Positions 1 through 46,597 of a stretch of 64,000 nt of DNA are shown piece after piece; position 1 is the stretch's first letter, and each line of letters begins with the position of its first letter. This DNA comes from a virus (taxonomy: Duplodnaviria > Heunggongvirae > Uroviricota > Caudoviricetes). Position numbers and translations under genes: made by a program. The stretch is taken from IMG/VR virus record IMGVR_UViG_3300033494_000001; one strand, 5' to 3'. The notes below the pieces were generated by a model. The model saw nothing but the letters and a program-made list of their open reading frames with translations. It made no database searches and was not told the origin of the DNA.

Positions 1-2
1 TT

Positions 3-263
3 GTTTATATTGAGCCTACTCCGAATGAAAATAATATGTATGATGCATGAATTTATAATGCACCATTACTTAAAAAAATATCCGTAATTGCTATTTTTAA
101 AGATCCAAGACAATTATTACAATATGATTGTTGTGCTGGAGATGAAATAGATAATTATTCATTTTTATCTGCTGAAATCAAGAAAAGACTTACAGAGAAG
201 AAAATTAGATATTACAGACAACTTTTACAACCACCTCAACCTAATACTCAAGCTCCACGATAA
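3..263 (+). CDS. C-terminal part of conserved crAss-like virion protein (probable ring/head-tail connector), 5'-truncated by window, TGA=Trp
   Basis: Open frame from window start with one in-frame TGA (DA-W-IYNAPLLKKISVIAIFKDPRQ...EIKKRLTEKKIRYYRQ), TAA at 261-263 overlapping the next ATG. Family call is from recall of crAss-like structural genes. Confidence 0.6.
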
Positions 264-967
264 TGGCACAATACTCTTTTCACACTGCATACACACAAGC
301 CCGTGAATTATATGGCTTGGAGCTTAATCCTGATGAATTTGAAACATTAGGAGTAATAGCATGAGATAAAATTGGAAACAAACAATATAAATTATATAAA
401 TATCAAGTAGAACCTACCCAAAATGATTTAAATGAATGGTATGTTGACCTTCCTTGTAATGTAGATATTATTGAGGCAGTTACTGCAGATTATGAAGATT
501 ATCAAAAAACTTCTAATCAACATTTAGCCGGACATACACAAAATGGATGGATTGAAGGTTATATTGAATCAAGAAAATATAATACAGGAACATTGTATTC
601 AGGTGGTAAATTTATTAAATATAGACAAGAAGGAAATCAATTAAAACTTTCAGACAAATTTAATAAAGTTAATATACTATATAAAGGTTTTGTTGCTGAT
701 GAAGATGGATTACCTTACTTATCTGCAAAAGAAGTAGATGCAATAGCAGCTTTCTGTGCATATGTAAGTGATTTTAAAGCAGCTAGATTAACTAGAGATG
801 CTAATACATTTCAAATGTCTCAAGTTATGGAACAAAAATGAAAAAGTTTATGTACACAAGCAAGAGTTCCTGAATATATTAATCAAAATGAAATGGATGA
901 AATCTTAAATGTATCTGTATCTTGAGATAGAAAAAGATTTGGTAAATCATTTAAACCAATTCGCTAA
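263..967 (+). CDS. crAss-like virion ring/tail-tubular-type protein, 234 aa, TGA=Trp
   Basis: ATG 263, in-frame TGA at 362, 839, 923, TAA 965-967. Contains track ORF 593..841. Motifs YVDLPCN, GLPYL, EMDEILNVSVSWDRKRFGKSFKP. Confidence 0.65.
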
Positions 968-979
968 GAAACATTATAC

Positions 980-2011
980 ATGAGAATGTTATTTAATCAT
1001 GGACTAACGACTGAGGAGTTGTTTACGAACACTCCTAAGTCGGTAGTTGATAGAAAATGAAGATGATTTATTACTAGGTATGGAAGTACTAACAGTTATG
1101 AAGATGCAATTTCCGATCCTTTTAAATATGCAATAGGATTAATATTACATTATGTTCTTGACAATAGAACTCGATTTGTAATTCCTTGTGTTTCAGAATC
1201 TTACATTGATTTTGAAATTGTTACAGGAGATATGTTTGAGGAACAAAGACAGAATGGACGATTCGGAGAGATTGATTTTATAGAATCAGATTTTACAGGA
1301 TATGCACTAAGATATTATTTTAAGACTAAGGCATATCAAAAGGCTTATCCAATCTATATGGGCGGTGAATTAAAGCAAAAATTTTTAACAGGGATTAATT
1401 CTGGAGTCAAATATTACAGTATTAAAGATGTAACAATTAATGATTTTTTGCCAAAAATTCATGAAAAATTTTCAGAATTATCCAAGATTGAAGTCAAAAA
1501 ATTAGTGCTACACGGATTTAGACGCATGCACAGCGCAATAAAATATGGATGTGCAATATCTATCCAAACGAAAAAAAAAATTAACTGCGTGGCTCATATT
1601 GGAGCAATATATTTAAAACCTGATAAGCAGATTAAAGAGTATAGTATTCGTCGTGATAAAAAATTACGAAAGATAGAAGGATGAAAACGACCACCATTTG
1701 ATGGTTATTATTATATCGGATTAAATGATGTTGCATTTGAAAGATGGGCAGAAGCTAATAAAAAAGCAAGAACTATTTTACATTTTACCAACATAATACC
1801 AAGAAGAATTAAAGAAGAAATATATTATAAAGCAAAGCATTTATATGTATTTAGATTTAAAAGAAAAGATTTTAAAGGATGATCTTATTGAGCTGAGCAG
1901 CTTAAATTAAGAGATGTAGAATATATTGGAGAGGCTTTAGACAGACAATTTACTGCTTCTACTATCACATGAAAACAATTAATAAAAGAATATGAGACAA
2001 GAAGCAGTTAA
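980..2011 (+). CDS. IHF/HU-like domain protein of the crAss-like structural block, 343 aa, TGA=Trp
   Basis: ATG 980 to TAA 2009-2011 with 6 in-frame TGA. Contains track ORF 1232..1684. HU/IHF-like helices (IHEKFSELSKIEVKKLVLHGF). Position matches the IHF-like gene preceding tail genes in crAss-like phages. Confidence 0.55.
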
Positions 2012-4235
2012 TACTTTTGAAGGTGGGGTTAATTACGACCTTAATCCTTTAACAACTCCGGCTAATATACTTACAGATGCTATAAATAGTGGATTTATCA
2101 CTTTTAATGGAGATGAACTAGCTTTACAAACAGATGCAGGTAATACTACAATAAAATATTTAGAAACTGATGTACATTTAACACAAGGATTTTATCCTTT
2201 AGGAATTAAAGAATATGGCGGAGTATTGTATATTATATCAGGAAAACACCCTACTAATACAACCTCTTTATATGATACAGAAGTACCTTATGCAGTAGGA
2301 GATATTGTTTATAATACAATTTTAGATGTTGATTATTATTTTGAATGTTTAACTGCAGGAGGAAATAATCTTCCAACTTCTACAATAAGTGATGAAAATT
2401 GGTTATATATAGGAATTGAAAAAGATTTTATTAATAAATATGGAAGTGTAGAATTTGGAAGTTATCCAAGTCCTGAAATAATTAATGCTGATATATTTGA
2501 TACCTCAGTAGATTTTGATTTAGTAAACGAAATTGCTACTCCTGGAGAAGAATTTAAATTAGAATTATACAAACCTAAAATAATAAATAGATCTATATTT
2601 AGAGCCGGTGTTTATGTTAATTTTCATAAAGTTATAGGAAGTACATTAGTTACTGATAATATTTCTTATGATGCGTTTACATACGATGTCACAAATAAAG
2701 TAGCTACTAAGAATCCAGCAAGTTATAAAAATATTTATAAAGTTAAATTATATCATCAATTAACAAATGGATATATAGATTTAACAGACAATGTTTGGGA
2801 ACAATATGCTAAATATGTTGGTCAAAATGATGCAGAAGATTTAAACATGACTGGACCTCCACGATTTTGATTTAATGATAATAATTTTAATTACCATTGT
2901 CCTCATAATTTTAAAGGTAAATTAGTTACGTCTGTTGAATTAGAAGAATTAGATGTATTTAAATTATCTTCAATAAGAGTTGATTATACCGATCCTAATT
3001 ATGAAGTTAATTTTGGTTTAACATATACAGAAACTGCACAATGAAATCAAGGAATTTCTCCGAATACTTGTACAATTTATTATACTTCTGACGGCAGTGA
3101 ACCTAATACACAAGAAGTTGTTTTAACTACAACAGTATTAACTAATCAAGATGTAACATCATTTATAATAAGTTTTGATGATACTATTCCTGGAACTTAC
3201 AATGGAAAAACTATGAGATATAAAATTATTCCTGATTTTTATTTTGATGGAGTAGAAATTGATAAAGTTGATATTCCACAACAATTTCTTGATTTACATA
3301 CAATTGTAGGAAGTCAATTAATTACAAGTGAAATGGCAGGAGTTAAATTTATTACTCAACCTGCTACTAATTTATGTGAAGTAGGAAATACAGGATATAG
3401 AATTGCTGATTATCTTGATTTAGTTAATAACAATGATGAAAATCTTGATAGTAATTTAGATCCTGCAGGAACTGACGTTTATCAATTTTATAATGATAAT
3501 ATTACTCCTAATGTAGGAGGAAATTATTTAGGAAGTTATACAATAGGATTAACTGGTTTGGCTGAATTAGCCTCTGAAGGTCCAATAATGTTAAACTCTA
3601 ATATTCGAGATTATGTTATTAGCTTATTAGAAGCAACTCTTGTTAAAGTTTATGATGTTACTTGTACAACTGTAATTTTAACTGTAAATGTTAATGCTAC
3701 TTATGGAGCAACAATACCAATTACTGTAATGCAAGGAGCTACTTCAATAGTAGGAACTGCAACAGGACCTACTACCTTTACATTCCCTATACTTCCAGGA
3801 GTAAATTACACTATTAGTCCTAGTTCGTCTATGAATGGAATAATTGATGCTTATGATTATATAGGTAATACTTTAGTTGATGAAGAAATTACTTATGGAT
3901 TTGTAATTGATTTACATATGATTGGAAATCCTATAGTACCTGGTGGTACAGATTATGAAGATTTCTTTACTGTAAATGTTCCAATAGGTTCTTTAAATAT
4001 TAGTTTTACTAATTTTACAAATGAACAAACTAATGTAACATTTTCCCCAACTACAGAAAATGTTAATATAGTTGGAGGAGAAAGTGATGTTGTATTTAGT
4101 TATGATTCAACTTTAGGAGATCCAACTTATTTAGTAACGTTTTCATCTGCTGCAGTTCAAACAACTTATATTAATATAGCAGATTCTGTAGTACTTATAG
4201 GTGATGCAATACTCTTAGAAACTTATACACTTTAA
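1992..4235 (+). CDS. crAss-like tail protein, 747 aa, with CBM-like insert and Thr/Val/Ile-rich C-terminal beta domains, TGA=Trp
   Basis: Track ORFs 1992..2870 and 3213..4235 are in one frame joined through 2 TGA. N-terminal motifs NTFEGG-DLNPLTTP-LTDAIN-FITFNGDELALQTDAGN and GIKEYGGVLYI are typical of crAss-like tail genes. Confidence 0.65.
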
Positions 4236-4246
4236 TAATTATACTG

Positions 4247-7200
4247 ATGCCTTTACCCTTAATAACAATACATTTGGATAATGCAATGTACGGATTCCCT
4301 CTTGAAGGGAATCTCGTATATCAGTATAATCCATTCCAAAACTTACAAAATCCTAATCCAAGTGAAGATAATTCATCAGGATTAGTTGCATTAAGTATAA
4401 ATAGTCAAAAAGCAGGAATTAATATTACTGAACCAGTTACAATAGAAACTGAAGTATCTTATGATGATTCTATAAATTTGATTATAACAGATCAAGTAAA
4501 TCCTCCTAAAATAGTTAATTCAAGATTTTACCAAACTAATACTATGACTTATTCAGTTGCAGATAGAAAAGGTAATCTTGATACTAATATTTATTCAGAA
4601 GAGAATTTTAAAATAGAAGCTGGATTAGTAAAATCAATTAGAACTATTTCTACAATAGACTTCTTAGGAATAAAAGATGGAGGTCTTATGAAAATAGGAA
4701 ACTATACATTCTATTTTAGATTAGCAGATTCTGATGGAAATGAATCAGATTTTATTGCTGAATCAGGAAAAGTAGTTTGTCATATAGGTTCAATTAATAC
4801 TCCAAGAGCTATTCGTGGTGGACAACAAGATGAAATTAGTTATAAACTTATTAAATTTAAAATTAATAATTTAGACTTAGCTTATGATTATGTAAATGTT
4901 TATTATACAAGATCAACAGGTGATGGAGATCAAGAAATAGTAAAAGCTTATAAAATCAATGATAAGTTTAAAATAACTAATAGAGATATTGATTTAACTA
5001 TTACAGGATACGAAAACCACGAAGAAATATCAATAGATGATATTAATGTTCAATATGCTAATTTTGATTCAGTTAAAACTTTACCTAATTGTCAAAATAT
5101 TACTTTTGCAGGTAATGTTACAAATGATTATGAACTATTTAAAACTCTTGAAAAATATAGTTTACATATTACTCCAAAAGTAGTATACGATACAGAAGGA
5201 ATTGGCAATCTTGATAACTTATATAATGAAGCTTATTTAAATAATGGATATGAATATTTTAATGCTAAAAATATTTATTATAAATTAGGATATTGAGATG
5301 AAGAAATATATAGAGTTGGAGTAGTTTATATTCTTAATAATTATACTTTATCTCCTGTATTTAATATTAGAGGTATTAAATCTCTTGATACTGCTACTAT
5401 GTTTACTTCATTTGCATTAAATGCTCCAATTAATTATGGAGAAGATTATATCTTTGAAACAACTGATGATCCATTAAATCCGGAAAATGCTAAAGGAGTA
5501 TTCAAGATTGATTGTAACACATATAATATGTTCAATCGAACAGATACTATAAAACCTTTAGGATTACAATTCTTATTTAATGATAATGTAATTCCTGGAG
5601 ATGGAAAGTTTATAGATGGATTACAAGATTTAACTAAAGGATTTTTCTTTGTTAGACAGAAACGTATTCCTACAATATTAGCTCAAGGAGTTGGTATAGG
5701 AACAAGTAAGAAAGCTAACATCCCTTTACTTAAAGGTACTAAATCTAGTAAGTCTTTAAGTTATAATTATTTTGCAGAATCATTTATAAAACCAAGTGGA
5801 GCAAGTCAAATATTAGGTGGCGATTTATTTAAAGTAGAAAATGCAGATGTATGGCAAAATGCTTTACTATGTCCTGAGGCCTGTGTTAAAACTACAACTT
5901 TTAATACATTCTTTAATTCTTCTGAATATTTCCTAAAACAATTTAAATATAGACCTACATCTGATGTTTTTAATAACTATGAATCGGATAGAGATAGTTT
6001 TGCACTTAAAAATTTACAGTCAAATGTAACTAATTTACAATCATTTAATTCGGAATTAACTTTAGTTGAACCAGGAATTGAATTAATTAGAAATAATACC
6101 TATGATTTCTGTTCTAAAGCAGGTGATGCAATCATTGCTTATAAGCATGTTGATCCAAATCTTGGTAATTATGAAGATTTAACTACTTCAAGTACAACTG
6201 ATTGAAATGGAACTACTTCTAAAGTAAGAGGTGAATTTAATACCTTTATAGGATGTAGTACTAACAATATTACTGCAGGATTATATTATAATATATTTCA
6301 AAAAGATTATAATTTTGAAAATTATTGAAAAGAATATTTCTTATTAAGATATAATGATGCAAGTCCTTTCTTACCTATAAGTGATAGAACAAGCTGAACT
6401 GATATAAATATTGATGGAACAGAATATTCTTCGGATTACATATTCAGAGGAGACTGTTATATAAATACTTATACACATAGAATGCATTGGAATTTCATAG
6501 ATACTGAACTTCCTACTAATAAAAGAATTGTTGACCCTTATACATGGGCAAAACATTTCAAAATTAAAAGTAAAGCATCGGTTCAAGTAATTGATAATAA
6601 TGGAAATCCACAAGAGTTAGCTACTGCAGTTGCCTTAACTTACCATAAACTTCTACTTTTATTTACATATAAAAATGTATTTGAGCCTGAGTGAAAAGAC
6701 GATCTTGGTACTGGAACAGATACAGCTTCATATACAGGTATATTAGAATCCGATCAAAAGAAGTTTAAAAAATATTCAGAAAGAAATGGATTATTTGGAG
6801 CTGAAAAAATTAACAAACCTGATATAAATGCAGTAGGTTTAGGACATTGGGCAACATTTAAAATTTGCAGTAATGTAAATTTAGCAATGAGAGATTTAGA
6901 TTTCTCACGACCAATGGAAGAAGCTCTACATAGACAAAAAAGAGGATTCTATCCTTTACAATCTATGGATAAAAACAATCACTTACCTGAATCAAATGTA
7001 ATTAACAATGGAATAAGTAAAACATTAGGAGATAAATACTATTTTGAAATTCCTGATGTACCATTCATTAAAACAAATTTTGCCACACGTATTTTCTATT
7101 CTAATGTATTACAAAACTCTATATTTACTAATGGAAATAGAGTGTTTGAATCTAAAAATTATTTAGATTATACAAGAGAATATGGAAGTTTAGTAAAATT

Positions 7201-8530
7201 AGTAGAATGATATGGAAAACTAATTGCTGTTATGGAACATGGAGTTTTACTAATTCCTGTTAATGAAAGAGCAATGATGACTAATGCACAAGGTGAGAAT
7301 GTTTACATTAATACTGCAACTGTACTTCCTCAAAATCCGAAAGTACTATCTAATACATTTGGAAGTTTATGACCAGAATCCATTACTAAAACATCAAGAT
7401 TTATTTATGGAATTGATTCTGTTGGTAAAAAAATATGAAGAACTGACGGAGAAACTTTTGAAAATATATCTGATTTAAAAGTTCAAAAGTTTTTAAATGA
7501 TAATATTAATTTACGAGAATCTGATAAAGATAGAAGTGTTAATGTTAATTTTATAAAAACACATTATAATGCTTTTAAACATGATATTATGTTTGTGTTT
7601 AGATATAATGATAAAGTATGAAATTTATGTTGAAATGAGCTTTTACAAAAGTGAACAACTCAGTATACATGAATTCCGGAGTTTTCAGAAAATATTAATA
7701 ATCTTTTTTATACCTTTGCAAATCAAACTAAACATACTTCCGCAAGTAATAAATTGTATAAGCATGGGTTCGCTGGAGTAGTAGAAGAAGCCGGAAATAT
7801 TCTTCCTGCTTACTGATATGATGAACAACATCCATTTGAATATGAATTTGTTGTAGCTACTATTCCAGGAGTACAAAAAATCTTTAATAATTTAAAGATT
7901 ATATCTAACTTAGTTGAACCCGATTCATTCTATTACGAAATAGTTGGTGAAGGATTTGATTGATTCAGTTACAAAGACTTAATTGTTAAATTAAATGATG
8001 TAACTTTAGCAACAATTGATGGGGTAACATTAACAACTTACACAACAGTAGCTACTGAAGACAATGTTAAGTTAAGATATAAAGAATATTTAACTGATAA
8101 AACTGATGTTAAAAAACTTCCTTATATTTTCTTACAATCATTTGATGTTAATAATCCATTATCATTCTTTAAAACAAGAACTAAACCAACTCCAGGAACA
8201 GCTTATAATATGTCTACTTTAAGAGATTTAACTATTAGAGAACATAACAAAACTAAAGAAAAATTAGTAGATAGTTATCAAATGGGTATGGACATAAAGA
8301 AGTATGGAAGAATGAAAGGTAATATGCAATATTTAGAAGATGCGTGAGATGTACAAATACAGCCAATAAGTTTCCCTTATTGTTATATTAGTGCTTCTAC
8401 ATTAATGTTTCTTCCTAATAAGGAAATGAGAATAAGGGACAAATATATTAAAATAAGAGTCAAATATGATGGTAGCAAATACGCAATAGTAAATGCTATT
8501 CGTTCTAATTTTGCGGTAAGTTTTGCATAA
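4247..8530 (+). CDS. Tail muzzle/'tail stabilization'-like protein, 1427 aa, TGA=Trp
   Basis: Single frame from ATG 4247 to TAA 8528-8530 through 15 TGA. Motifs GNLVYQYNPF, SYDDSINLI, GYWDEEIYRVGVVYI-LSPVFNIRG, RGDCYINTYTHRM, WNLCWNELLQKWTTQYTWIP. Size and position fit the crAss-like muzzle family. Confidence 0.7.
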
Positions 8531-8531
8531 T

Positions 8532-9761
8532 ATGAAGAAAAAATTAATTAAAAAACATCAACGAGGAGATAATATATGAGCTCCTCAACAAAACCTTTTA
8601 ACAGGAATAGAAGATATAACAAATTTCTTTAATAAGAATGTTACATCTTCTGTTCCTCAACAGAGGAGTACAGTATCATTAATGCAACCAAAATCTACCA
8701 ATCCTGTTGTTTCTTCAATGTTTCCTAAACAATTAAGTGATACAGCTAAAATGTTTCAACCTGGAGGTGGAAATCTTTCAGGAAAAGGAACTGGATTTTT
8801 AGATAGCTTAAAAGGTATGGGAACAGAGATTGCAGGAAGTGCTCCTGAATTAATAGACGCCGGATTAGGTGCTTTAGGAGTAAAGAGAGCAGACGCTAAT
8901 TTAGCACGTGGTGCAGCAGGTTTTGATAAAGGTGCTAGTACAGCATTTAAAGTTGCTATGAAAACAGGAAATCCTTGAGCAATTGCAGCAACAGGAATTG
9001 TTGCAGGATTAAGTAAAATTAATATGTATGGTGGAAAAACTCTTAAGAGTTCTGGAACCGATGCTATTAATATGAAAGGTTATACTCCTGGAATGGAAAC
9101 AGCAGGTAAATTTGCAATAACAGGAAGTGGAAAGAAATATGATAGATATGCAAAACAGAATAAGAATATAGCAAATACTAATTTATTAAAAGGTAATGCT
9201 TCTTATGGAGATTCACAAAATCAGCTGGCTGCTTCAAATAGTTATGGTGATATTGCTACTAAAAACTATCAACAATTACAAGGAGGAATTAATCCTAATG
9301 TCCTTTCCGCTAAAAAAGGAGGAACTATTAATCCTGCAAAACTTTCTAATATAAAGAAAAAAGCTTTAAGAAATGTTAAGAAAGCCCAAGAAGGAAGTAT
9401 GGCAATAAATACTACAACTTTAGCTTTAGGTGGTAAAGTTAATATAATTCCTGAAGGCGCTTTACATGCACATAAAAATCATTATGAAGGTGACCTTGCA
9501 GAACAAGTTACATCAAAAGGTATTCCTGTTATTACTTATGAAGAAGGCGATAAAATCGTTCAACATGCAGAAATAGAAAGAAATGAAGTTATATTTCATA
9601 TAGACACTACTAAGCAATTAGAAGAATGATTTAAAGAATATAATGATACAGAAGATACTAAAAAGAAAGCAGAATTAGAAATAGAATGTGGTAAATTTTT
9701 AGTTGAAGAAATTTTAGAGAATACTTTAGACAAGACTGGACTTTTGGAGGAAGTTAACTAA
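8532..9761 (+). CDS. Virion cargo-type protein, 409 aa, TGA=Trp
   Basis: ATG 8532, TGA at 8577, 8976, 9627, TAA 9759-9761. Gly/Ala-rich middle. C-terminal GGKVNIIPEGALHAHKNH...KGIPVI...QHAEIERNEVIF...ECGKFLVEEILENT. Confidence 0.6.
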
Positions 9762-12010
9762 TGAAATATATACCTAAATATCAAAGACCTTTTTCTCCTT
9801 TAGTTACAATTCAAGATAATACAAGAACGGTATATCCACAACAAGCTTTAATACAATTACAACAAGGACTTAGGGATAATCAAAAAGAGCAGGATTATCA
9901 AACAGCAATAAAAACTAAATCTGAAGTTGCTTTTAAGGAAAAGTATAAACAATCACCTCATAGGTATAAATATGATACAGACCCTCAATATAAAGCACAA
10001 ACTGATAAGCAAGGAAAAGTATCAGCAAAAGAAAATGGAGCAATAGATTTACCATCTTCTGATTTAAGAAGAAAAGATGTTGTTAATCCTGCAAATATGT
10101 GAATGTATCCTAACTTAACTGGAGAATCTAATAGACAGGCTACAAATTTTTCTAATGAAGTTATAGGTGCTGCTCTTCCAATCCTATTAATTAATAAAGT
10201 GGGAAAATTGCCAGGAATAACTGATAAAGTTATAAACTCAACATTAGCAGCAGGAAAAAATTTAGTTAATCCCGCCGAACGTTTATTAACTGAACAGGAG
10301 TTACTAAAATTAAATCAAACATTAGACAAAAAAGGCATTCTTCCACAACAGAAAACTTTTAATTGACCATGAAAAGAACCAATAAGAAAAGCAATAGAAC
10401 CCTTTGGTTATGGCAGTGCTCAAGGTGGCATGACAATTACTGGTGGTAAATTTAGTGATTTAAAGGGAGCCATCTTTGGAGGAAAAAATCCAAGTTATGT
10501 CAGTTCTAAGGAATGATTAAAAATTCTTAGTGGATATGATGATGATATAGCAGTGGCTTTTAAAAACTTAAGACAAAAGAAATTATCAGGAACTGAATAC
10601 GAAGATGCTATAAATAATTTAATAGAAAGTACTGGACAAAGAAGATCATCAGTAATTAGTGAGCCAAATATTAAAAAGGCTTTAAATAATAGGGATAAAT
10701 TAAGAATACGACCAATTGATCCTTTGGCTCCCAAGGAATTTTCTAATACCTCTCCCATAAAATTAAATAATAGGTATACAACTTGAGATATGTATTTGGG
10801 AAAACCTCAAATTAAACACCCAATGTATACCGTAAGTCCTTTAAGTACTAATAAGAAAACTGTTTATACAATTAAACCAGAATTTACAAATAAAGCTGCA
10901 ATTGAAAGAGAATTAAAAGAAAATATTAATTTAGTTGCCAATAAAGATTCTAATTTAGGGAGATGAAATATATTAACTGATAATAGAACTAAGGACTATA
11001 CATTATTAGATTCAGATGCATCTTATTTTGGCACTATGGGTGGATTTAACTGAAAATTTAAACCTTTAGAAAATGGAAATGTACAAGCAATTGCAAATGA
11101 TATATGAGATTTAAATCCTTATCAGCAATTTAAAATTAAACAAAAATGAGTTCCTCAAGTAATTAAGAATAAAATTGAACCATTAGTACAAAAAATTGAA
11201 GTAGGAAAACTGTTAGGTATAGGAAAACCCTTAGATGTAAGAGTTGGATTTGAATTTGATAAGACTGGAAACATAATTAAACAATTTAAATGTGGAGGAA
11301 ATATGAAATATCAAATAAAATCTAAAACAAAGAAACAAAAACTCCAAGATGGAGCACAAGTTCAATATAATGATGCTATTAAGAATAAAAGACTGATTAA
11401 AAAAGGTCAAACTGGCTTAAAAGTAATATCTGGACCAACAGTATATAGTAGAAATGACCCTGCTTATAAAGCATATCAGGATAGTTTATCTGAATATAAT
11501 TATGGTGTGAAATTTCAACAAGATAATCCTGACTTTGATAGATATTCAATTAATGAATATCTTAATAATCCTTATATTCCATCAATTATTAAAAATAATT
11601 TTATAAGAAATAAGAATAAACCTATAGGTGTTATGGCAGACCCTAAGTTTAGTCATGTTGGAGCTATATATAAAAAGCCTACTAATCCTATTACATTAGC
11701 ACAAGTACCAAAGTTACAACCTAAACTTAATCAATCTTCTAATACCAATCTTTTACAACCAAGACAAACTCCTGAATTATCTTATCCTATTGATAAAAAA
11801 TTACTTAGTTCGAGAGGAGTATATATAAATGCGGGAAATAATGATGCTAATCATCAAGGAGAAGGAATGTACACTATTAATACTTATGATGATGGCAGTT
11901 CTGATAAAATAAAATCTATTAAAAGAAAATCTTCTGACTTAATTGTTAAAAAACAAATAGGAGGGAAATTACCCGATATAACTAATATACTTGCTCAATG
12001 AAAAAAATAA
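9761..12010 (+). CDS. Hypothetical late/cargo-block protein, 749 aa, TGA=Trp
   Basis: Track ORFs 9761, 10103, 10553 and 11303 are in one frame joined by TGA (10 total). First non-TGA stop is TAA 12008-12010. An internal start at 11303 cannot be excluded. Confidence 0.55.
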
Positions 12011-12579
12011 AAATACAAATAGCTGATAAGCAATACACGGTTGAATTAGCTGAATCTGAGGAAGAACAAGAAGAAGGATTACAAGGACGAATTGAATTAC
12101 AAGAAGGAACAGGAATGTTATTTATGTTTGATAAAAATGAAGTTCGAGGATTCTGAATGAAAGATACAGAAATTCCTTTAGATATTATCTTTATAGATGA
12201 TGAATTAGAAGTAACAGCAGTTTACGAAGGAAAACCAAATGATATTACTTTATTAGAAGCTGAATGTACTTATGTATTAGAAGTAAATCAAAAATCAGGT
12301 ATTAAAGAAGGCGATGAGTTAGACTTTGAACCTGATAATAAACAAATAAAAAAGACAGATAAGATGTTAGTGTTAGATTCTAGTGGAGAAACACAGATGG
12401 AATTAGATGGCGGTGAGAGAATTTTTTCTCGCAAGAATACTAAAACATTAATTAAATTCGCTAAGAAAGCAGCAACAACAGAAAAGGAGAATGATTATAA
12501 AGCATTAGGAAAAAGAATGTTTAAATTTTTGCAGGTACAATCAGAAACTCCTGCAGAGTATGTAGAATCCAAAAATTAA
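11998..12579 (+). CDS. DUF192-family protein with C-terminal extension, 193 aa, TGA=Trp
   Basis: VELAESEEEQEEGLQGR...GMLFMF...GF[TGA]MKDTEIPLDIIFID matches the DUF192 signature FWMKxTxIPLDIIF. The Trp is TGA at 12154-12156. Confidence 0.85.
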
Positions 12580-12587
12580 TTAAAACA

Positions 12588-12878
12588 ATGATTGTAAAAA
12601 AATTACAAATGGGTGGACCAGCTCCTGAAGCGGCACCTCAAGGTGGTGCACCTGCACCTGAACAAGGCGGACAACCTCAAGGTGGTGGACCAGAAGAACA
12701 AATTGCTGCAATGGCACAACAGATTATTCAACAATTAGGTCCTGAAGCAGCAGCAATGCTAGCTCAGATTATAATGCAGATGTTACAAGGCGCCGCAGGA
12801 GGTGGAGAAGAAGCTTCACAAGGCGAACCTGTATACGCTAAAAAAGGCGGAAAATTAGTTTTAATAGGCAGAAAATAA
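12588..12878 (+). CDS. Small Gly/Gln/Ala/Pro-rich crAss-like protein, 96 aa
   Basis: Intact ORF, no Trp codon. Starts MIVKKLQMGG and ends PVYAKKGGKLVLIGRK. Confidence 0.75.
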   Translation: MIVKKLQMGGPAPEAAPQGGAPAPEQGGQPQGGGPEEQIAAMAQQIIQQLGPEAAAMLAQIIMQMLQGAAGGGEEASQGEPVYAKKGGKLVLIGRK

Positions 12879-12888
12879 GCCTACCTCT

Positions 12889-12927
12889 AAAGGGAAGCAG
12901 AATTATCTGTCTTCCCTTTATTTCTTT
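12889..12927 (+). terminator. Intrinsic-terminator-like hairpin inside the late block
   Basis: AAAGGGAAG-CAGA/ATTA/TCTG-T-CTTCCCTTT followed by ATTTCTTT, 10 nt after the 12878 stop. Confidence 0.55.
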
Positions 12928-12948
12928 AAATAATAAAAACACAAATAT

Positions 12949-19769: not shown

Positions 19770-19776
19770 TAAAAAT

Positions 19777-28692: not shown

Positions 28693-28707
28693 TAAATACA
28701 AACTACA

Positions 28708-34700: not shown

Positions 34701-37584
34701 AGGTTCTGACTTTGATATTGATAAAGCATATATTTTAGGAAGTAGTTTCTCAGGTAATGGACAATTTAATACCTGAGGATCTATTGATAATTATTCATCT
34801 ATTGAACAATTACATGAGTTAGAAAAACTACCTTTACCAAATGCTACAATTGTAGAATTAGTTGAAGGAGGGCTAGATTTAACAGAGGATTTTATTAAAT
34901 TTTATGCTAATCCTTCATTAGCATTTAATGAATTTTCAGCAGAACAATTAAAAGTTTTGAATACAATTTTGCGAAAAATTAATAATGTAAATGTTAAACA
35001 ATTATCAGAAAAAAATCATCCTCCTATTACTACAGGAATTTCAATTAATGGCAATGAAGAGTTATTAAAAGGATTTGTTGTTATATTAAACAATTTTAAT
35101 AAAAATAAAAAACATTTATATAATAATGAATCATTAAAAAATCTTACAGCGTCCACAATTAAACAAGTTATTTCATCACCAAGTAATTATTTATTAGCAA
35201 ATACACCAATTAATATTGATGATTGGCACCAAGCTGCTAAAGAAGCTTTAAGTAAAAAGACTAAACCTCCAACGATTTTATCTATGTATGATATGTTTAG
35301 TATGTATAAACAACAACGAGATGCTGCAGTTGGTAAAGATGATGTAGGTATTGCAGCAAATGGATTAAAAGCATTTTTTGCATTAAGTACATATTATAAT
35401 AGTTATTTTAATAACTTCTTTGAAAATAAAGCTGATGCTTTACGACAGAGTAATAAAACATTTTCAAAACAATTCAATTTTATTAATAACGGTGTAGTAA
35501 CACCTTATAAACTTGGAATGATTGCGGATGTGAATATTCAACAAAAACAAATTACATCTTTACAAAAATCTATTGGAGATTTTGAATTAAGAAGAACTAA
35601 TGCTGCCTTAGCTTTATCTGGTTTTACTAGTGCTGCTACCGATAATGCAAAAGAGTTACTTATGGCTAAAATTAATGCAAATGTTGAATTAGCATCTATG
35701 CATATTTATTTGATGATTCTTGGATTTACTCCTACACAAGTTGCAAATATTATGACTAATGATGTTATGGAAGATGTTATTGATGCATTGGAAGTAAATG
35801 CTTTTTTTAATCCTAAAAAACCAGTAGTAGCTACTATTTTTACTAAATTGATTAAAGAATACGGTGATGAAAATCCTGAAAAGGTCCAAAATGCTAAAAC
35901 ATTAAAAGAAATTTTTCAAGGGGCACAAGAAGTTAAAGTATTAGCTAAATTTTTATCTGTTAACCAAAAAACATCAGCAAATATTCAAGAAATTAACAAA
36001 TATTTATCTAACTTTGAAACAGCGGTTTATGCAAGAGAAAATCATGTATTTTCAAATAACGTTGCTGATTTAAATTTTTGAATGAATAATAAGGATTCAA
36101 AAGATTTAGTTAAAGTAGCAGAAGCTAATACTAAATTAGATAAATTAATTGGATTAATTTTTAAATATAATACTTCTTTAGATGCAAGTCTTGATGTAGC
36201 TTATGTAAAAAAGACTTTATTAAAAGCAGGCCAGTTAAATATTATTGGAGGAAATTTTGATTTTCAAATCTATTTTAAACCTGAAAATGTTCTGTATAGA
36301 GAAGCTACTAAAGAGTATTATAATTTAATAAAAAGTACTTTTAATATATTTGATGTAATAGATGATTTGCCTCATTTTAGAGAAATGATTAATGGATTAG
36401 CATTAACACATGAGATTTTATTAAAATCATCTGTTAAATATAATACAGCGTTTTCGTTAATTAAAACTACAATTCGTGAAAATTCTCATCGAATAGTATC
36501 TAATTCTTCAAATATTGTAAATCAATTTGGCAATCCATCATTTTATCCAAAAATTACTGATAATATTATTTCAAAAGGATTAGCAGGAATTGATATTAGA
36601 TTAATTAGTGAATGATTAAAAACTGATGAACTGAAAAAGTATTCATTTAATGTTACTGAATTATTACGAAAAGTAAATAGTATGAACTTTGATGCTGGGT
36701 TAACTAAAATAAATAATTTTAGAGTATATACATCTGATAACGCTCGAAATGCCAAGTATATAAATGATAATTCAATATTAGTTAATGAAACTGATACAGA
36801 AAATACTATTATTACATTAGATACTAATTTTGGAATTGCAAACTTTAAGCGATTAATGGAAAGTATTTTACTTCCAATGTTACAAACTAAATCTAATATA
36901 TTATTAGATTCGTTAAAAGTTCAAACTAATATTAGAAATATTTTAGGAATTAAAACTCAAGGTATTACATCAACATTTCCTTTAAGTGCTATTAATAATG
37001 CTGTAACTAAAGACAAAGCACAGAAATTAATAAAAGCTTTTAATGAATTAGATATTTCTCATGATACAAATACATTAGTAAAAAATACACAAAATAATTT
37101 AGTAAAATGAAGAGATTTATTTTATATCTATAATCTAACATTAAATAATGAGCGTTATGGTGCATTACGTTTAACTCCATTATTTGAGGATTATATTAAA
37201 GAAGAAGATTCTTTAGGTTATGATTATGTAATGTTTTCTTCTAAAATTGATAGTGGAGAATTAAATTTATATGATTTGGAAAAAGAATTATCTCGCGATC
37301 CAGAGTACTTACTTGCTCAACGAAATGAAGATAAATTAAAAATATTAGAACTTAGAAAAAAAATAAAAACAGAATTAGAAAATGATTTACTTTTTTATTC
37401 TTTACATAAACAAGGTTCCTTAGCAATCAAAGGTTTAGGAAGTGAGTTAAATTCTAGTAATGGAGATTTCGTAATTGTTACCTCTATGACAGAAACCCCG
37501 GAAGTTAAAAAAGGATGAGCAGAATTACATGAAGTAATTCAATTGATTAAAAGTAAAGGATTTATAATTAAATTTGAATGTTAA
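28708..37584 (+). CDS. Virion-packaged two-barrel DNA-dependent RNA polymerase (crAss-like, phi14:2 gp66-type), 2958 aa, TGA=Trp
   Basis: One frame through 17 TGA to TAA 37582-37584. Motifs KRN, DVHDG, GPQL, RIP (34594-34602), GSDFDIDK (catalytic DFDID 34708-34722), GKDDVGIAA, ATDNAK. Confidence 0.88.
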
Positions 37585-37587
37585 ATT

Positions 37588-40500
37588 ATGGCAAAATGTA
37601 AATATTTGTTAAAATTACCTAGTGGAGATGTCATAGAACTCTCCACTAGTTTTAATAATCTTGATGGACAAAATCCAAAAATAGATGAGCTTTTCAATAG
37701 CTATAATGCAGAAGAAAACGTTGAGAAAAAAGATAAAATATTAGCCAAATTGGCAGATTTAATTACTGAAGAAACCTCTTTTAAAATACATCAAACAGTT
37801 CTTAAAAATATAATTAAAAAAAGTTCTGAAATTGATAATCTATATCAAACTGTTAATAAATTAATAATAGAATCGGGCACGTATGCAAATATTGAACAAG
37901 CTATTAAAAATTATATTTGAGAGGGAACAAAGAAAGGCGAAGTAAATGAGAAGGTTAAAAGTTTAAAAGCAAAGTTATTAAAGAAAAGAGATTTAAATTA
38001 TTTTAAAGGCTTAGGTGTTGTCGGAGTTTTAGGAACAACAACATTAAAAGAAGAAAAAGATAGAATTAAATCTAAAAATTTAGAAAATTTACAAAATTAT
38101 TTTAATACAGAAATTACAGAAAATCTTCAATTATTATTATCTACGTTAAATGTAAAACATTTTAAAAATAATGATTCGCATTTATTATATTCAGTAAATG
38201 ATTCATTTATAGGAAAAGCTTGAAGTACTGATGATGTTGTTATTTATGAAACAGATGATGATTTATCTTTATTTTTAGGATTATTTAAAAGAGAAGCTAC
38301 TAAAGTAAATATTGAAAGTTTAGTAAGTATTTTAAAAGAAGATAAGACTTTTGATATAAATACATTTGATATTCAAACTTTTTTTCGTGGCACAATTGTA
38401 GAAAATAAAATTATTCCATCTACGTTTGAAAAAATGTTGACTAAAGCTACAGATGCAAAAACTGTATCTCAAATTAATCAGATTTTAACATTAGTAGCTA
38501 AAACAATTAATCCAGATACAGTAGGACTTATTAAGGCTATAAAATCATTATTTTGACAACTACATCCTAATTCATATGGAAAAGATAATTTATTTAAACA
38601 ATTACAAGATATTCAGTTTGTAGAAAATGAATTACAAGTAGAAAAAGAATTTAAGGAAAGACAACTTTCTTTCTTTGAATTAGAAACTACTAATAAAAAT
38701 ATGTATTTTGCTCCATCTGAAACAATTTTCGATAATTTATATGAAAATGCTCTTGAAAATATTATTGTAAATAAAGATATTGTAAAATTTCCGGAAGGTT
38801 CAGAAGGAACATATGGTTTAGTTACAGGTATATATAAACGTCCCAATAATCAAGTTGCAATTTATGGAGTTATTAAAAATTCATTTGGAGAAATTAAATA
38901 TGTTAACAACACATTTAAAGCTGGGGAACTTACTTTTCGTAAGAGAGAAGAGCCAATTGCAGAATATAGAATAGGAGAATCAGGACAATCAGTTTTAAAA
39001 TTAGAAGGAGCTCATATTAAATTAGATACTCCTTTAAGTCATAAAATTATAAAACCTTTTTTAAGTAAAGGTGATACTGTTGGAAATGATTTACTTTTAG
39101 GTATTTATCCTGGTCAATTAACCGTGGAAAAAACATCTGGAAAAGTAACAAAATCTGAACATATATATTATTCTAAAATAAGATCATTCACATCATATAA
39201 ATTACTTGAATTAATTAAAGCCGAAGAAAGATCAAAAACTGATAATTATAAATCTTTTGCTGAAGTTAATAATAGTAATGATTTAACTGCTGGAGATTTA
39301 TTTTTATATCAAGGAAAAACACATAAATTCTATAAAAGTATTTTATTTGTTGATGCAAATAATGTATATTCTTATGTAGAAGATGTCAAAAAAAATCATT
39401 ATATAATTAAAGCTTTTCCAAAAGAAGGCTTACAAGGTATTAGAAATAGTATTCGACATTTAACAGATACTGATATTAGACAAATAAAAAAAGAATCAGA
39501 AAATTTAGGACGTTCTGCTGCAACAATGTCATCATTTCAAGATTCAACATTAGCACAAGAAGGAGACTTTTTTACATTTACAGATAATGGAAAGAAACGA
39601 TTTGGTGAAGTTTTATCCGATAAAAAAATTCTAACATATGATGAAAATCTAAGTGATAGAGTTATTAAATCAATGGATTATATTAAAGAAAATAAATCAG
39701 ATTTACAATTCTTTACAAATCGAAATATTACTTCAAACTATACTTTATTTACAACAAGAGCTAATAGTTGAAAAGTAGAATTTAAAGAAGCCATTGAAGA
39801 TTCTAAATGAGAAGTAGAAGTACGTTATGTTATTCCAAAGACTTTATCAGAAGAAGCTAGAGCTTCAGCTTCTATATTACCAGGAAATTATCTAAATATT
39901 GGACAATATAAAGATATTAATCATATAAATAGTGATGATTTAGATTTTACAAAAGAATTATTAAAAGTTTTAAATCAAAAATCTAATTCAAAGATCTTTG
40001 TTAGAAGAGAAGCTTTACAAGGTCAAGAATCTAATTTATATGAACGTAATTTAACATCTTTAGTAGTAATTCCTGGATTTGCTAAATTAGATTTTCAAAC
40101 AAAATCAGATTTAAATATTATTCAACCTGGAACTTATTTTGCACTACAACATAAAACTAATAAAGATTGAATTGATAGAAACATTTATCGAATTATAAGT
40201 GTAGATGGAGATATTGTTAAAGCACATCTTAATAAATTCTCGCCTGAAGGTAAAATAATTACACATGAAATAACGTTATCCGCAGAGGAATTATTGAAAG
40301 AAAGAATAGCAAAATTATATTTACAAGTAGGTAATACAAAAATAAAACCAGCTTTTAAAGAAGCCAATAAATTAGTTGAAAATAAAGTAGAAAATCGAAC
40401 TAAAACAAATAAAGCTATTAATTTATTAATTGATTCATTTAAGCAATATACTAAAGACTTAAACATTCCAATTAAATTAATTTCGCATTCATCTATATTT

Positions 40501-41040
40501 ACGGAAGGTCAACATGCTGCTATTTCGTCCATAGATGAAAATGGAGAACAAAATTTATCAATTTTAATTAGTGATAAAATTGGAACAACGGAAGATGTAA
40601 TTCATGAGTTTTTACATGTATTTTTAATCCCATTACGCTATAAACATCCTGAAATTTATAATGATTTTATTAAATCAGTTTTACAAGATTCAACACTAAA
40701 TCTTACTGATATAGATAGTATCAATGTTACTGAAGCTGAAGAAATATTTGTTAAATTTGTATCTGCAAAAATTGCTAATAAAGAAGATTTTATTAAAAAC
40801 TTTGAGAATCTTCAAACTTTTGTAAATGGATTAAAAAGTATTATAACTGATGTAAATCCATTATATGAAATAGATAATACTGAAAATCCAGTAGAATTAT
40901 TAAATACTCCTTTAATGGATTTATTTGATATACCAAAAGGAGATTCTAGTCATGCTTTATATAACTTGAGTCTAATTGTAACAGAACCAGCTATGAGAAC
41001 TTGATTAAATGAAAATAACATAACTTTAAATTGTTCATAA
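37588..41040 (+). CDS. Large virion protein with C-terminal zincin-like (HExxH) domain, 1150 aa, TGA=Trp
   Basis: One frame through 7 TGA to TAA 41038-41040. VIHEFLH at 40597-40617 with a downstream EAEEIF helix. Confidence 0.7.
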
Positions 41041-41041
41041 A

Positions 41042-44000
41042 ATGACAAATTGCTATTATTACAAAGATGGAGAAAAGATAAACGACATACAAACTTTAAT
41101 TACTAAATTTTTTGAAGCCAACTATCAATTAAAAAATGATAAAATTTATAGTAAAGAAGAGATTCAAAAAAGTACAATTAATAAGATTTTAAATGTAGTT
41201 AAAGTTTCAGATTATACTGCCTCTGACAATGAAATCGTAACAGAGTTTATTACAACTCCACATCCAGGTTTATATAATTCTTTAGGAATTGAAACAAAAG
41301 AAAAAGGAATTTTAGCTCCAGAAATTATTGAAAAAAATAGAGTTTACTATTTTATAAAAGAAAACTTAGACCGAGTTCAAAATATTTCTCCAACAGAAAA
41401 CATATCCGGATTAAAATATGATGAAAAATTACTAGAATACATTTCAACTTTTGATGAATTAAAAAATATTCCTTTAAGTAGATTAATAACTCTTTTAAAT
41501 GAATATTATAATATTCGAGAAATCGAAGAAAAGACAAAGGATTTTGGTACATTTTTACATAATATTATTTCTTTAAAAATACAAGATAAAGAATATAGTA
41601 AACTTATTGATCGATTTTTATCTGATCCAGCAAACTCAGAATTACTTGGTAACTATTCTACAAATGATTGAACTAAAAAGATTAATGAAATAGTAACAAA
41701 TGTTATTTCTCAGGTTCAAGGACAAGGGTATCTTATTAGTGAAATTATGATAATGACTGATGGAGATAAATTTAAAACACCAATTGATATTTGAGGTGAG
41801 GATTCAAAGATTTCAAGTGGAAAAAGAGGATTAAAAGGAAAACTTGACTTAGTAGCTGTTGATACATCAGGAAATGCACATATATTTGAAATTAAAATTT
41901 CTAAAACTAAATATCAGAAATGAGATACAGCTAAAAAGTTAACTTTAGATTGACAATTAGCTTTATATAGACAATTATTAGGATTACATATTAATATAGA
42001 TCAAACTCGATTATATGTAATTCCTATACATTTAGAAACTCTTGGAAATCCAGGTAGTATAAGTGTTGAAAAGATTGTAGATAGAGGAACTGAAAATAAT
42101 AGTGGTTTAAATTCAACTGGAGCAATAACTCAAAAAGCAAATAAACTCATTCCTAGAAAAGTAATTGCAGATTATAATCCAGATAGAGAATATAAATTAA
42201 AAGGGCAATTATCTGATTTACTTGGAAATCAATATAAAATAGAAACAGGACTTGAAGATTTTGATGTAGAAAAAATTGTAGAAAATGCAAGAAAACGTTA
42301 TGAAAAAGACAAGAAATGGATTAAATGAAATAACTTTGAGGGAATTTCAGGATTAAAAAAAGGTTATATTGAATCGGATACAGAAGAAGAGTTTAGAAAA
42401 AAAATTAAATTATATGTTGACCATGTAAAAACTCAAACTAATCGAAATGTCTCTATTTTAAAGGATGCTATTATATCAGCTATTAAAAGTAAAATTCCAG
42501 TTAAAACAAATTCATATGATTTACAAAAGGATTTAACTATCAATCATTTATTAACCGAATATTTAAATGATGATTGAGATGTAGTAACTGAAATTCCTGA
42601 AGCAATTGCTTTTGGTTTAGTTGTTTTAAAAAATAAATTAAATGGAAACATTAATGTTATTAGTTTATCTATAAATCAATTTGATGCATCAAGTCATATT
42701 GATGGAAAAACATATGGAGATTTAGAATTTTTAAAAACTTTTTTATTTTTAAATGAATTTAAAGATATATTAATTCCTACATCAGATGTTTCTGTTAAAA
42801 ATGATAAAATAGCACAAATTATAATTTATAATCCATTAAATATGCAAACTTATCCTAAAAATTGTTTTAGTAAGTTTGTTGAATTTAAAGAACAAATGTC
42901 TTTAAAAGAATCATTAAGAAAAGAATTAAAATTAAGTGAAAAAAATGTAGCTTCAATTGAGGATATTGCTTTATATAACTTAACTACTAATTTAAGAAAT
43001 TTTAATGGAACAAATAAAGAAGATGTTGAAAGAGTTTTTAAAAATATTAGTGATACAAATTTAGATTTATTAGATGTAGAAGCTTTAATTGAAGTTCAAA
43101 GAGAGTTGTTTAATTCCCCTGGATTTGTTGGATATCGAGATAAAACAATGAAAGGAGTAGTTGATTTCAATGATCCAAAAGAAGTACTAATTGCACTTTT
43201 ACAAGTAGTTATTGCTTCAAAAGGTCAAATGGAATTTGCTGATGATTATCAACGAATGTCTAAATATAGTTTAGGTTTTTCTGATTTCAAAAGTTTAATT
43301 GCCGTATTATTTAGTGATCATCAGGAAAAATATAATAAAGAACGTCAACGTATTCAAGGAATTACTCAGGGATTGTTATGAACTACTCCAGATTGAGTAG
43401 CATCAAAAGATTTACATAGTATTAATAAAATTATGGCTATGACAAATCAACATATTGGAGAAAAAATGTTGAAGGCATCAGAACAAATTGCTTGAAATAC
43501 TAAAAAATTCTATAAAGAAATTAATTTCAGTGGATTTTCTCGTAATATTATTGGTGAAACTCAAACAAAGCATGAAAATTTATGATTACATGATATAAAT
43601 CAAAAAGTATCTAAAGAATTTAGAACTAAAAATCCTTATGTGTTAGATAATCTTAATGCATTAGAGGATCATGAGCGAGAATACCTACAAAATTTATTGT
43701 TAATTATAAATGCACATAAATTACAAATTCCAGATTCAGAAATTGCAAAGTTAGATAGTAAAAATATAAAATCATTAATGACTAATAATAAAATAAAAGA
43801 TGCTTTAGAAAGTGAAGAATATTTTAGAATGCCATTAATTAGAAGAGAAGAAGTTACTAGATTTGGTGATATCTTTACTACTCCAGGAAAACTTTGAAAA
43901 GAAAAATTATCATCATATTTTCATGAATTTAATGATTATATTGATAATCGTGAATTAACTAAAGATGATTTGGCAGCTTTGGAGGCTCAAAATTTAGGAT

Positions 44001-45706
44001 TTTATGAAATGTATGATGTATATGCTAGACAAACTCCTGAGTATGTAGCTAAAGGTATTGAAAAACATTCAATAAATTATTTTGAATGAAATTTAGATAC
44101 TATTGCACATCGAATTGCTTTTAGTAAAATTAGAAAAAATGAATATGATAAAAAACTTCCAATCATTAATTCTTTTATATGATGGATGAAATTATCAGCC
44201 GGTAAAAATAATGAAGATATCTCCAATCAATTAGAGTATATTACTAATCAAATGAAATTATCTATTTTTGATGAACCAGTTATTGATGAAGAGTTTAAAG
44301 ATTTTGCTAAAGTAGCCGGTTTAGTTAAAGCAATTTCAACTCCTGCTATGTTAGGTTTCAAAATAACATCTTTAGTAAAAGAAATGACTATTGGAGTATT
44401 TAAAGGAATATCTTTAGCTGCTACTCAAATTTATGGAAAAGATCAATTTACAATTGGCGATTTAACTAAAGCTTATCACAAGTTAATGACTATTGATAAT
44501 AAGTTTTCATCTGAATTTAATTTAATTGATGATTTAAATAGATATTATAGATTTGCCAATATGGACGTTAATACTATTGCAAAAAAATCTCAATCTGATA
44601 GACGAGGTATGCTTAGAGGAACAGGTCGATATTTATATATGTGTAATACAATTCCTGATTATTATAATAGATTATCGATTTTTCTTGCTAAAATGATTCA
44701 TGATGGAAGTTATGAAGCTCATTCATTAGTTGATGGAGTATTTACTTATGATCCAACAAAAGATAAACGTTTTGAATATTATTTTAAAAATCGAGACAAA
44801 TATCAAAAAGGAAATGAATTTATCGCATCAACTAATGATGTTAAATATAATCAACAACGTCAAAGATATTTGTTATTACAAAATATGCTAAATAAAGAAT
44901 ATGGTAAAGATACTTTTTCAGAAAAAGATATAATTAATAAAGCATATTCAGAAACGGAGAGAACAAGTATGAAATCCTTTACTGATATGGCATATGGTTA
45001 TTATGATAAAGATGCTCAATCTCAAGCTAATAATACGTGATGAGGAATGACCTGATTACAATTTATGCAATTTTGGCCTGGAAAAATGAAAATGTGATTT
45101 GCTAAACCTATTGATGAACAACATAGAGATGAAAGTCCTATGGGTAAAGTTGTACAAGACTATTTAATTGTTGATGGTAAAAAAGTATTACAATACTTTA
45201 AAACAGTTGAACATGATGATGGAACAATTACAACTGAAACTACTGATCAAGATACAGGAGATCCAGTAATGAAATGAGAAGGTTCTCCATATGAAGGACT
45301 TTGGTATTCTGTAGTAGGAACATTACGTGATGTTGTAAAATTGGATTTTACTCATATTAAAAATAGTGAAGAAAGAAATAGACGTGCTTTATTTGCTTTA
45401 GCTGATGCTGGATTAATTTTTATAATGCTTGGTATTATGAAAGCTATAATAGATCAATTAATTGCAGAAAAAGGTACTGACGGTTTATCAGGTTCATTAT
45501 TAAATTTAACAGGAAGAGTTAATAATAAAGTTTTAAATGAATATAATGTATGACAAAGTACGTTAGGAGCTGTTAATACAGAACCTGTCTTCTTATCTTG
45601 AAGTAAAAAAATGTCAACAGATATATGAGATTCTATCTCTGGAGATAGAGAAATTATGGATGTTATGACAAGAAATATTGGTGCTGCTGAAGTGTTTAAG
45701 AAGTAA
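41042..45706 (+). CDS. Large virion protein with N-proximal PD-(D/E)XK nuclease domain, 1554 aa, TGA=Trp
   Basis: One frame through about 21 TGA (including tandem TGATGA 45038-45043) to TAA 45704-45706. Motifs GTFLH, GKLDLVAVD, IFEIK, WQLALYRQLL at about 41546-41980. Confidence 0.75.
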
Positions 45707-45708
45707 TC

Positions 45709-45761
45709 AAAAAAAAAATACCCCTCTACCGCAATTAAGCAGTAGAGGGGTATCTTATTTT
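45709..45761. terminator. Bidirectional intrinsic terminator between convergent blocks
   Basis: TACCCCTCTAC...GTAGAGGGGTA stem, preceded by an A10 run (T run on -) and followed by TCTTATTTT on +. Confidence 0.85.
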
Positions 45762-46545: not shown

Positions 46546-46597
46546 GAAAAAAAAAATAGGGGAACCCACATCAAATGATGTAAGTTCCCCTTTTCTA
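46546..46597 (-). terminator. Intrinsic terminator ending the early block
   Basis: GGGGAAC..ACATC/AAAT/GATGT..GTTCCCC hairpin (46559-46590), followed on - by TATTTTTTTTTTCTT. Confidence 0.75.

Follow-up and report, generated by a model that had tools for sequence, protein, structure and literature searches.

Sequence evidence for two genetic codes in a large crAss-like phage, with TGG-only early genes and TGA-tryptophan late and lysis genes

The window analysed here, a 64,000-nt stretch of the IMG/VR virus record IMGVR_UViG_3300033494_000001 (Caudoviricetes), very probably (about 0.93 by our own estimate) belongs to a large crAss-like phage that uses two genetic codes. Its early genes write tryptophan exclusively as TGG, whereas its late and lysis genes also read TGA as Trp and would depend on a phage-encoded tRNA with the anticodon UCA, tRNA(UCA). 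An earlier note on this DNA had proposed that the block from position 1 to 45706 is written in a TGA-Trp code and resolves into 15 contiguous frames, each ending in TAA. Calling genes with translation table 11 left 27 open reading frame (ORF) fragments of at least 150 aa on the plus strand of 1-45706, whereas table 4 yielded exactly 15 genes between positions 3 and 45706, which abut or slightly overlap and all terminate in TAA. At the same time, the share of the plus strand covered by long ORFs rose from 46-57% (46% with ORFs of at least 150 aa, the threshold used for the fragment count and strand cover) to 98.5%. The 15 genes hold 132 in-frame TGA codons, close to the roughly 130 counted by hand beforehand, together with 28 TGG, and neither TAA nor TAG interrupts their frames, whereas the remaining two frames of the same DNA contain hundreds of TAA and TAG. 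The landmarks singled out in the earlier note were likewise recovered: the in-frame TGATGA at 45038-45043, the TGA at 12154 in the DUF192 gene (W53), the TGA at 5294 within GYWDEEIYR of the muzzle protein (W350), the four TGA within 7619-7672 (at 7619, 7631, 7652 and 7670), and the 17:5 excess of TGA over TGG in the gene at 28708-37584. The boundary at 45706 did not stand, however, as the minus-strand endolysin gene at 45769-46479 is recoded as well. Because this minus-strand gene is recoded, recoding in the window tracks function and not strand. The late set, that is the 15 plus-strand genes and the lysin gene, thus comprises 16 genes and 15,428 codons with 134 TGA and 28 TGG. Standard decoding would cut 15 of the 16 genes at 5-55% of their length, so that only a reading of UGA as Trp allows the set to be completed.

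The identity of the residue encoded by TGA emerges from protein structures, homologues and orthologous codons. W53 of the DUF192 protein aligns with the Trp of 'fWMrnT' in 3m7a and of 'mWMKNT' in 3pjy, both from standard-code bacteria, and the two TGA codons of the lysin gene align with the Trp of 'LEsGWG' and 'aSWkG' in the FlgJ structures 5dn5 and 3vwo. For the muzzle protein, single-sequence and profile searches against the PDB returned no match, and we compared it with 119 homologues. Trp is the majority residue at 13 of its 15 TGA columns, and on average 86% of the homologues carry Trp at a TGA column, as against a background Trp frequency of 1.4%. The earlier statement that protein families require Trp at such positions accordingly holds within the closer clade but not beyond it, since Met occupies the W350 column in FpV4, a distantly related Flavobacterium phage (26% identity) that uses the standard code. 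At the codon level, TGA and TGG alternate at identical muzzle columns among 14 IMG/VR relatives, and columns that are TGG in the window are often TGA in these relatives. When all late genes were compared with the closest large relative (G005; the relatives are denoted G001 to G005), the window's TGA positions corresponded to TGA in 40 cases, to TGG in 41 and to another codon in 22, and the orthologues of a second relative, G002, showed the same pattern of exchange. With TGA counted as Trp, this residue makes up 1.05% of late codons, compared to 1.4% in the early genes. Furthermore, the same frames persist across numerous independent contigs that are 45-70% identical. Judged by these comparisons, TGA is a Trp codon in the late genes; the structures, the muzzle homologues and the TGA/TGG interchange all bear out the preference for Trp over Gly expressed in the earlier note, which had named homologue alignment at TGA positions as a check.

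The genes read from the minus strand beyond the lysin behave differently. This block encodes functions in replication and nucleotide metabolism, including a class II ribonucleotide reductase, an ATP-dependent DNA ligase, an RNA ligase, a dUTPase, a ThyX-like protein, an AAA_33 kinase and a PF18909 protein. Its 31 genes (5,708 codons) contain 81 TGG and no sense TGA, so that the TGA:TGG ratio is 134:28 for late and 0:81 for early genes (Fisher p = 1e-40). In other A/G-ending codon pairs the A-ending codon takes a share of 87-95% in late and 84-88% in early genes, whereas for Trp the corresponding values are 83% and 0%. Since the late value matches that of the other pairs, TGA behaves in the late genes like any freely chosen synonym under A/T pressure, its share being the one expected from the A/T bias of the genome. 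The same asymmetry is seen in relatives, as TGG codons of the early genes pair with TGG in orthologues 34 times in G005 and 33 times in G002, and never with TGA. Only two in-frame TGA codons occur in the early block, near the ends of the genes at 51040-51303 and 52529-52960, and both lie 8-9 codons ahead of a TAA or TAG. Orthologues of the 52529-52960 gene extend by about six residues and have Gly or Arg at the TGA column. Because either reading of these two codons gives nearly the same protein, the early block tolerates TGA only where its meaning is irrelevant, and the early set is neutral to the choice of code. The restriction of recoding to late genes, as proposed earlier, thus holds inside the window: virion, cargo, putative RNA polymerase and lysin genes are recoded, and replication and nucleotide genes are free of sense TGA.

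A dedicated suppressor tRNA was found in relatives of this phage. Three of them are rated complete by CheckV (G001, 213 kb; G002, 172 kb; G003, 178 kb) and carry 25-29 tRNAs each, among them exactly one tRNA(UCA) per genome; a tRNA(UCA) is also present in four further contigs of the clade. The tRNA(UCA) of G001-G003 has the anticodon loop CU-UCA-AA and the discriminator G73, and the tRNA-Trp(CCA) of these phages has the loop CU-CCA-AA. Two of the three relatives' tRNA(UCA) molecules have the ordinary 74-nt tRNA form. We infer that these tRNAs are charged with Trp. In G002 the gene lies at 60.0 kb, where the late strand begins, within a stretch that is nearly TGA-free; the muzzle gene follows about 38 kb downstream, and the main tRNA island is far away. 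The earlier note had argued that late translation needs a UCA suppressor tRNA and/or inhibition of release factor 2 (RF2). The tRNA was indeed present in the three complete relatives, whereas release-factor (PF00472) and tryptophanyl-tRNA synthetase (TrpRS; PF00579) genes were found neither there nor in any other of the five relatives searched.

Two side observations concern these tRNAs. In five distinct contigs of the close clade (L087-L093), the tRNA(UCA) lies 30-40 nt upstream of a gene for a 182-aa zinc-ribbon HNH/EndoVII-like protein, exemplified by the tRNA at L063:2009-2082(-) and the gene at L063:1421-1969(-); the gene is TGA-free in G002. More distant homologues of this gene sit within ordinary tRNA islands, and the tRNA(UCA) and the endonuclease gene could together form a mobile cassette. 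Moreover, G003 encodes a tRNA(CUA) (L064:5198-5272), and its muzzle gene is free of in-frame TAG.

On the preferred reading, the replication and nucleotide genes, being TGG-only, would be translatable by an unmodified standard-code host from the start of infection. The phage tRNA(UCA) would then accumulate, be charged by the host TrpRS and outcompete host RF2, and virion, giant packaged and lysis proteins would be completed only after this accumulation. Because nearly all late-set genes are truncated under standard decoding, recoding could keep late and lytic functions translationally locked, with any earlier translation being cut short. The order of these events and the handling of RF2 would follow from such a scheme, which has been published as a late-gene suppressor-tRNA model for crAss-like and other phages (PMC7886860, PMC12386605, bioRxiv 10.1101/2021.08.26.457843).

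Three other readings of the TGA codons have to be weighed against this two-code reading. If the host itself translated TGA as Trp, the whole phage would be written in code 4 and no switch would occur during infection; as the window genes end in TAA or TAG except for two small candidates, nothing in them strictly requires TGA as a stop. We consider such a host very unlikely, because all 81 early Trp codons are TGG even though 84-88% of comparable early codon pairs end in A, because the early orthologues in two relatives never use TGA, and because the relatives encode a tRNA(UCA) of their own, which would be superfluous there. Moreover, crAss-like phages have been found in Bacteroidota, a group with the standard code (PMC7886860), and the presence of related contigs in gut-type metagenome-assembled genome (MAG) bins points weakly in the same direction. 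These bins were rejected as an unreliable basis for host inference, their labels ranging from Bacteroides to an archaeon: the clade contigs in question (L079-L085, GTDB; one of them 163 kb) are binned as Bacteroides, Muribaculaceae, Lachnospiraceae, Intestinibacter, Ignavibacteriaceae and a Diapherotrites archaeon, a mixture that is evidently due to binning contamination.

A different objection is that the TGA codons are real stops, left by gene decay and fragmentation, by an assembly artefact, or crossed by leaky host read-through without a dedicated tRNA, and the window, which holds no suppressor tRNA, would agree with it. We give this very little credence, given that TGA alone interrupts the frames and TAA or TAG never does over 15,428 codons, that the same frames recur in independent contigs at the identities given above, and that 22 consecutive leaky read-through events would presumably leave no full-length product. 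That TGA encodes another amino acid, be it Gly (code 25), Cys or selenocysteine, might be suggested by the 'SeC' label that ARAGORN assigns to the relatives' tRNA(UCA) and by the TGA near an early-gene end that aligns with Gly or Arg. This is hardly credible in view of the Trp residues that DUF192 and FlgJ proteins of standard-code bacteria have where the window has TGA, the dominance of Trp in 13 of 15 muzzle TGA columns, and the exchange with TGG rather than with GGN or TGY in orthologues. In addition, the 74-nt form of two of the three tRNA(UCA) molecules is unlike tRNA-Sec, and a Trp content of 1.05% with TGA as Trp comes near the 1.4% of the early genes.

Several points weigh against the two-code reading itself. 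The window contains no tRNA and no Rfam family, and no release-factor gene was found in it, in agreement with the earlier statement that neither a UCA suppressor tRNA nor RF2 inhibition is visible there; G005, which spans the same genome segment, has no tRNA in it either. The tRNA-Trp(CCA) is the nearest paralogue of tRNA(UCA) only in G003, and for G001 and G002 similarity is uninformative. Proteins with 17-22 TGA codons need near-complete suppression, and yet the relatives lack RF1, RF2 and TrpRS. Recoding of the lysin gene is not conserved, the closest relative, G005, having a different lysozyme that is TGG-only, and the label 'late' is taken from gene function. Finally, avoidance of TGA in the capsid gene suggests that suppression is costly. 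In seven full-length orthologues of this gene from relatives (L068:9206-10636 in G002, L007:15-1445, and those in L009, L011, L012, L013 and L015), 0-2 TGA stand against 5-8 TGG, whereas neighbouring late genes have 2-5 TGA per TGG. The most abundant virion protein may thus be kept free of a costly codon. In G002, three adjacent genes with Laminin_G_3 domains are also free of TGA.

These features raise a more speculative extension, namely that TGA density is a graded throttle on late translation and that phages of this clade encode an unrecognised factor neutralising host RF2. It would be in line with the approximately 100% read-through per site that 17-22 TGA codons demand, with the absence of RF1, RF2 and TrpRS genes from the complete relatives, with a capsid gene that is almost TGA-free beside neighbours with 2-5 TGA per TGG, and with the placement of a single tRNA(UCA) in a nearly TGA-free stretch at the head of the late strand. 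We regard this extension as doubtful, though not far-fetched.

The assignment to crAss-like phages follows from the match of the muzzle protein to PF25731, from the DFDID motif of a giant late protein and from the match of the G002 major capsid protein (MCP) to PF23898 Crass_capsid (E 3e-12); two other families, PF25729 and PF24228, match window proteins only below their cut-offs. A contig of 168,911 bp encodes a muzzle protein 100% identical to that of the window over 99% of its length, whereas the best match in the GenBank phage collection reaches 35-38% identity, and megablast of the first 20 kb of the window against GenBank phages gave no match. By these searches the lineage has diverged from the phages on record and has many uncultured relatives. 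Zeta crAss-like genomes measure 145-192 kb, and suppressor tRNAs have been described in crAss-like phages (Yutin et al. 2021, PMC7886860). By size and tRNA content, the 168,911-bp contig and the relatives of 172-213 kb with 25-29 tRNAs would fit a possible membership in the Zeta group. For Zeta/Lera phages, TGA in muzzle, ring, lysin and holin genes was reported in 2025 together with tRNA-Sup(UCA) and an apparently unused tRNA-Sup(CUA) (PMC12386605). The phage studied here resembles them in its large genome and in its use of TGA as Trp mostly in late genes, including those for muzzle, ring protein and lysin, and its relatives carry many tRNAs, including a tRNA-Sup(UCA) and, in G003, an apparently unused tRNA(CUA). 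It differs in that its muzzle protein is no closer than 35-38% to the best GenBank phage match and in that no introns or inteins were seen in the window.

Comparable divisions of the genome are known from other lineages. Borges et al. reported phages in which the replication genes keep the standard code while genes for structure, lysis and homing endonucleases are recoded (bioRxiv 10.1101/2021.08.26.457843; Nat Microbiol 2022). The Agate, Jade and Sapphire phages share with the present one standard-code replication genes, recoded structural and lysis genes, a low GC content with few TGA stops, a suppressor tRNA (here in relatives) and recoded homing endonucleases (here in the relative G002), but they belong to another phage lineage and infect another host phylum. 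Jade phages, furthermore, have a 'code change module' of TrpRS, RF1 and tRNA, whereas the complete relatives of this phage are devoid of RF and TrpRS genes. The crAss-like phages that reassign TAG to Gln belong to the same order and follow the same logic of stop reassignment in late genes, but they involve a different stop codon and amino acid, and the proteomic proof reported for them concerns code 15 (Peters et al. 2022, PMC9523058), whereas the present case is made from sequence. As for cellular organisms, Mycoplasma and Spiroplasma also read UGA as Trp with a tRNA bearing the anticodon UCA. In these organisms the whole genome and cell use code 4, and RF2 is absent, whereas here only part of a phage genome is affected, in what is presumably a standard-code cell.

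The phenomenon, the suppressor-tRNA mechanism and the bias toward late and lysis genes have thus already been published, and the window is a clean further example that raises no new question. In practical terms, table 11 breaks the 46-kb block into dozens of meaningless fragments and loses the muzzle, putative RNA polymerase and lysin genes, so that such contigs call for genetic-code calling per block. The phage may also be useful for testing how UGA can be reassigned almost completely inside a standard-code cell when the phage brings neither a release factor nor a synthetase. The individual features of the window are compiled in Table 1.

Table 1. Features of the window (positions are those of the 64,000-nt stretch; TGA and TGG are in-frame counts).
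Position	Strand	Feature	Observations
3-263	+	Late gene truncated by the window start (3' end only)	1 TGA; TGA at the same column in the G002 orthologue
263-967	+	Ring-protein-like virion gene	Weak match to PF24228 CrAss_Ring_1 (E 0.0013, below curated cut-off); 3 TGA, 2 TGG
980-2011	+	Late gene	6 TGA; TGA/TGG exchange in G005 and G002 orthologues
1992-4235	+	Late gene	2 TGA, 2 TGG; TGA/TGG exchange in G005 and G002 orthologues
4247-8530	+	Crassvirus muzzle protein gene	PF25731 (E 1.4e-23, above cut-off); 15 TGA, 4 TGG
8523-9761	+	Late gene without assigned function	3 TGA, no TGG
9761-12010	+	Late gene without assigned function	10 TGA, no TGG
11998-12579	+	DUF192 protein gene	PF02643 (E 9e-25); sole Trp codon is the TGA at 12154 (W53)
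12588-12878	+	96-aa late ORF	No Trp codon; conserved in G005 and G002
12949-17856	+	Large late gene	19 TGA
17856-19769	+	Large late gene	5 TGA
19777-28692	+	Gene for a giant 2971-aa protein, probably virion cargo or transcription block	22 TGA, 4 TGG
28708-37584	+	Putative virion RNA polymerase gene (2958 aa)	GSDFDIDK at 34702-34725; 17 TGA, 5 TGG
37588-41040	+	Large late gene	7 TGA
41042-45706	+	Large late gene with PD-(D/E)XK nuclease domain	21 TGA, two of them in the in-frame TGATGA at 45038-45043
45715-45756		GC-rich 18-bp hairpin, terminator-like	Between the converging blocks; T-run on the minus strand
45769-46479	-	Endolysin gene (glucosaminidase, FlgJ-like)	PF01832 (E 1.4e-24); phrog_3513 endolysin (E 4e-37); 2 TGA (W130, W148), 0 TGG
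46558-46591	-	Terminator-like hairpin of 15 bp with a T-run behind it	Directly behind the last early gene, dividing the lysin gene from the early block
46598-64000	-	Standard-code replication and nucleotide-metabolism block	31 genes, 81 TGG, no sense TGA

The plus-strand block is the distal part of a crAss-like late region, with the genes for TerL, portal and MCP lying outside the window, the MCP gene upstream of it. Downstream of the DUF192 gene it continues with very large genes of 637 to 2971 codons, of which the PD-(D/E)XK gene is the last. In crAss-like phages, the motif DFDxD or DFDID marks the RNA polymerase that is packaged in the virion (bioRxiv 10.1101/2020.03.07.982082; PMC13573597), and by this motif the 2958-aa protein is a putative virion RNA polymerase. 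The earlier note had called its gene an RNA polymerase gene outright; the codon counts given for it were confirmed, whereas for the label we found the GSDFDIDK motif but no sequence match in Pfam, PHROG or the PDB (phmmer). The neighbouring 2971-aa protein gave no PDB or PHROG match and in Pfam only a sub-threshold hint of AAA_19.

Within the early block, the gene at 47798-48103 on the minus strand, which adjoins the ThyX-like gene and the kinase gene, encodes a 101-aa protein with a match (E 6e-25) to PF18909, the dATP/dGTP diphosphohydrolase N-terminal domain. Enzymes of this type are known from phages capable of modifying their nucleotide pools. The window genes scanned included no PurZ-like gene.

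The lysin gene, finally, occupies a position of its own at the junction of the converging blocks. Its first TGA follows directly on the ALETG motif, and standard decoding would give a stump of 129 aa. At the same position G005 carries a Phage_lysozyme2 gene (L077:3598-4326) with a homologous N-terminus and TGG as its only Trp codon. The two lysins have an N-terminal segment of about 60 aa in common and differ in their catalytic domains (glucosaminidase vs Phage_lysozyme2), as if domains had been exchanged while the genome position stayed the same. No lysin homologue was found in G001-G004, and given the TGG-only lysozyme of G005, we rejected a recoded lysin at the converging junction as a conserved feature. 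In G002, an SLT transglycosylase gene on the early strand is recoded (6 TGA to 1 TGG), as is a GIY-YIG endonuclease gene. In the window, the lysin gene is flanked on both sides by a long GC-rich hairpin with a T-run, so that it stands between the early and late blocks as a one-gene unit, insulated from both. Ahead of its ATG lies an AT-rich spacer of 80 nt in which TACTTTTG is found; we take this sequence to fit the Bacteroidota -7 consensus TAnnTTTG.

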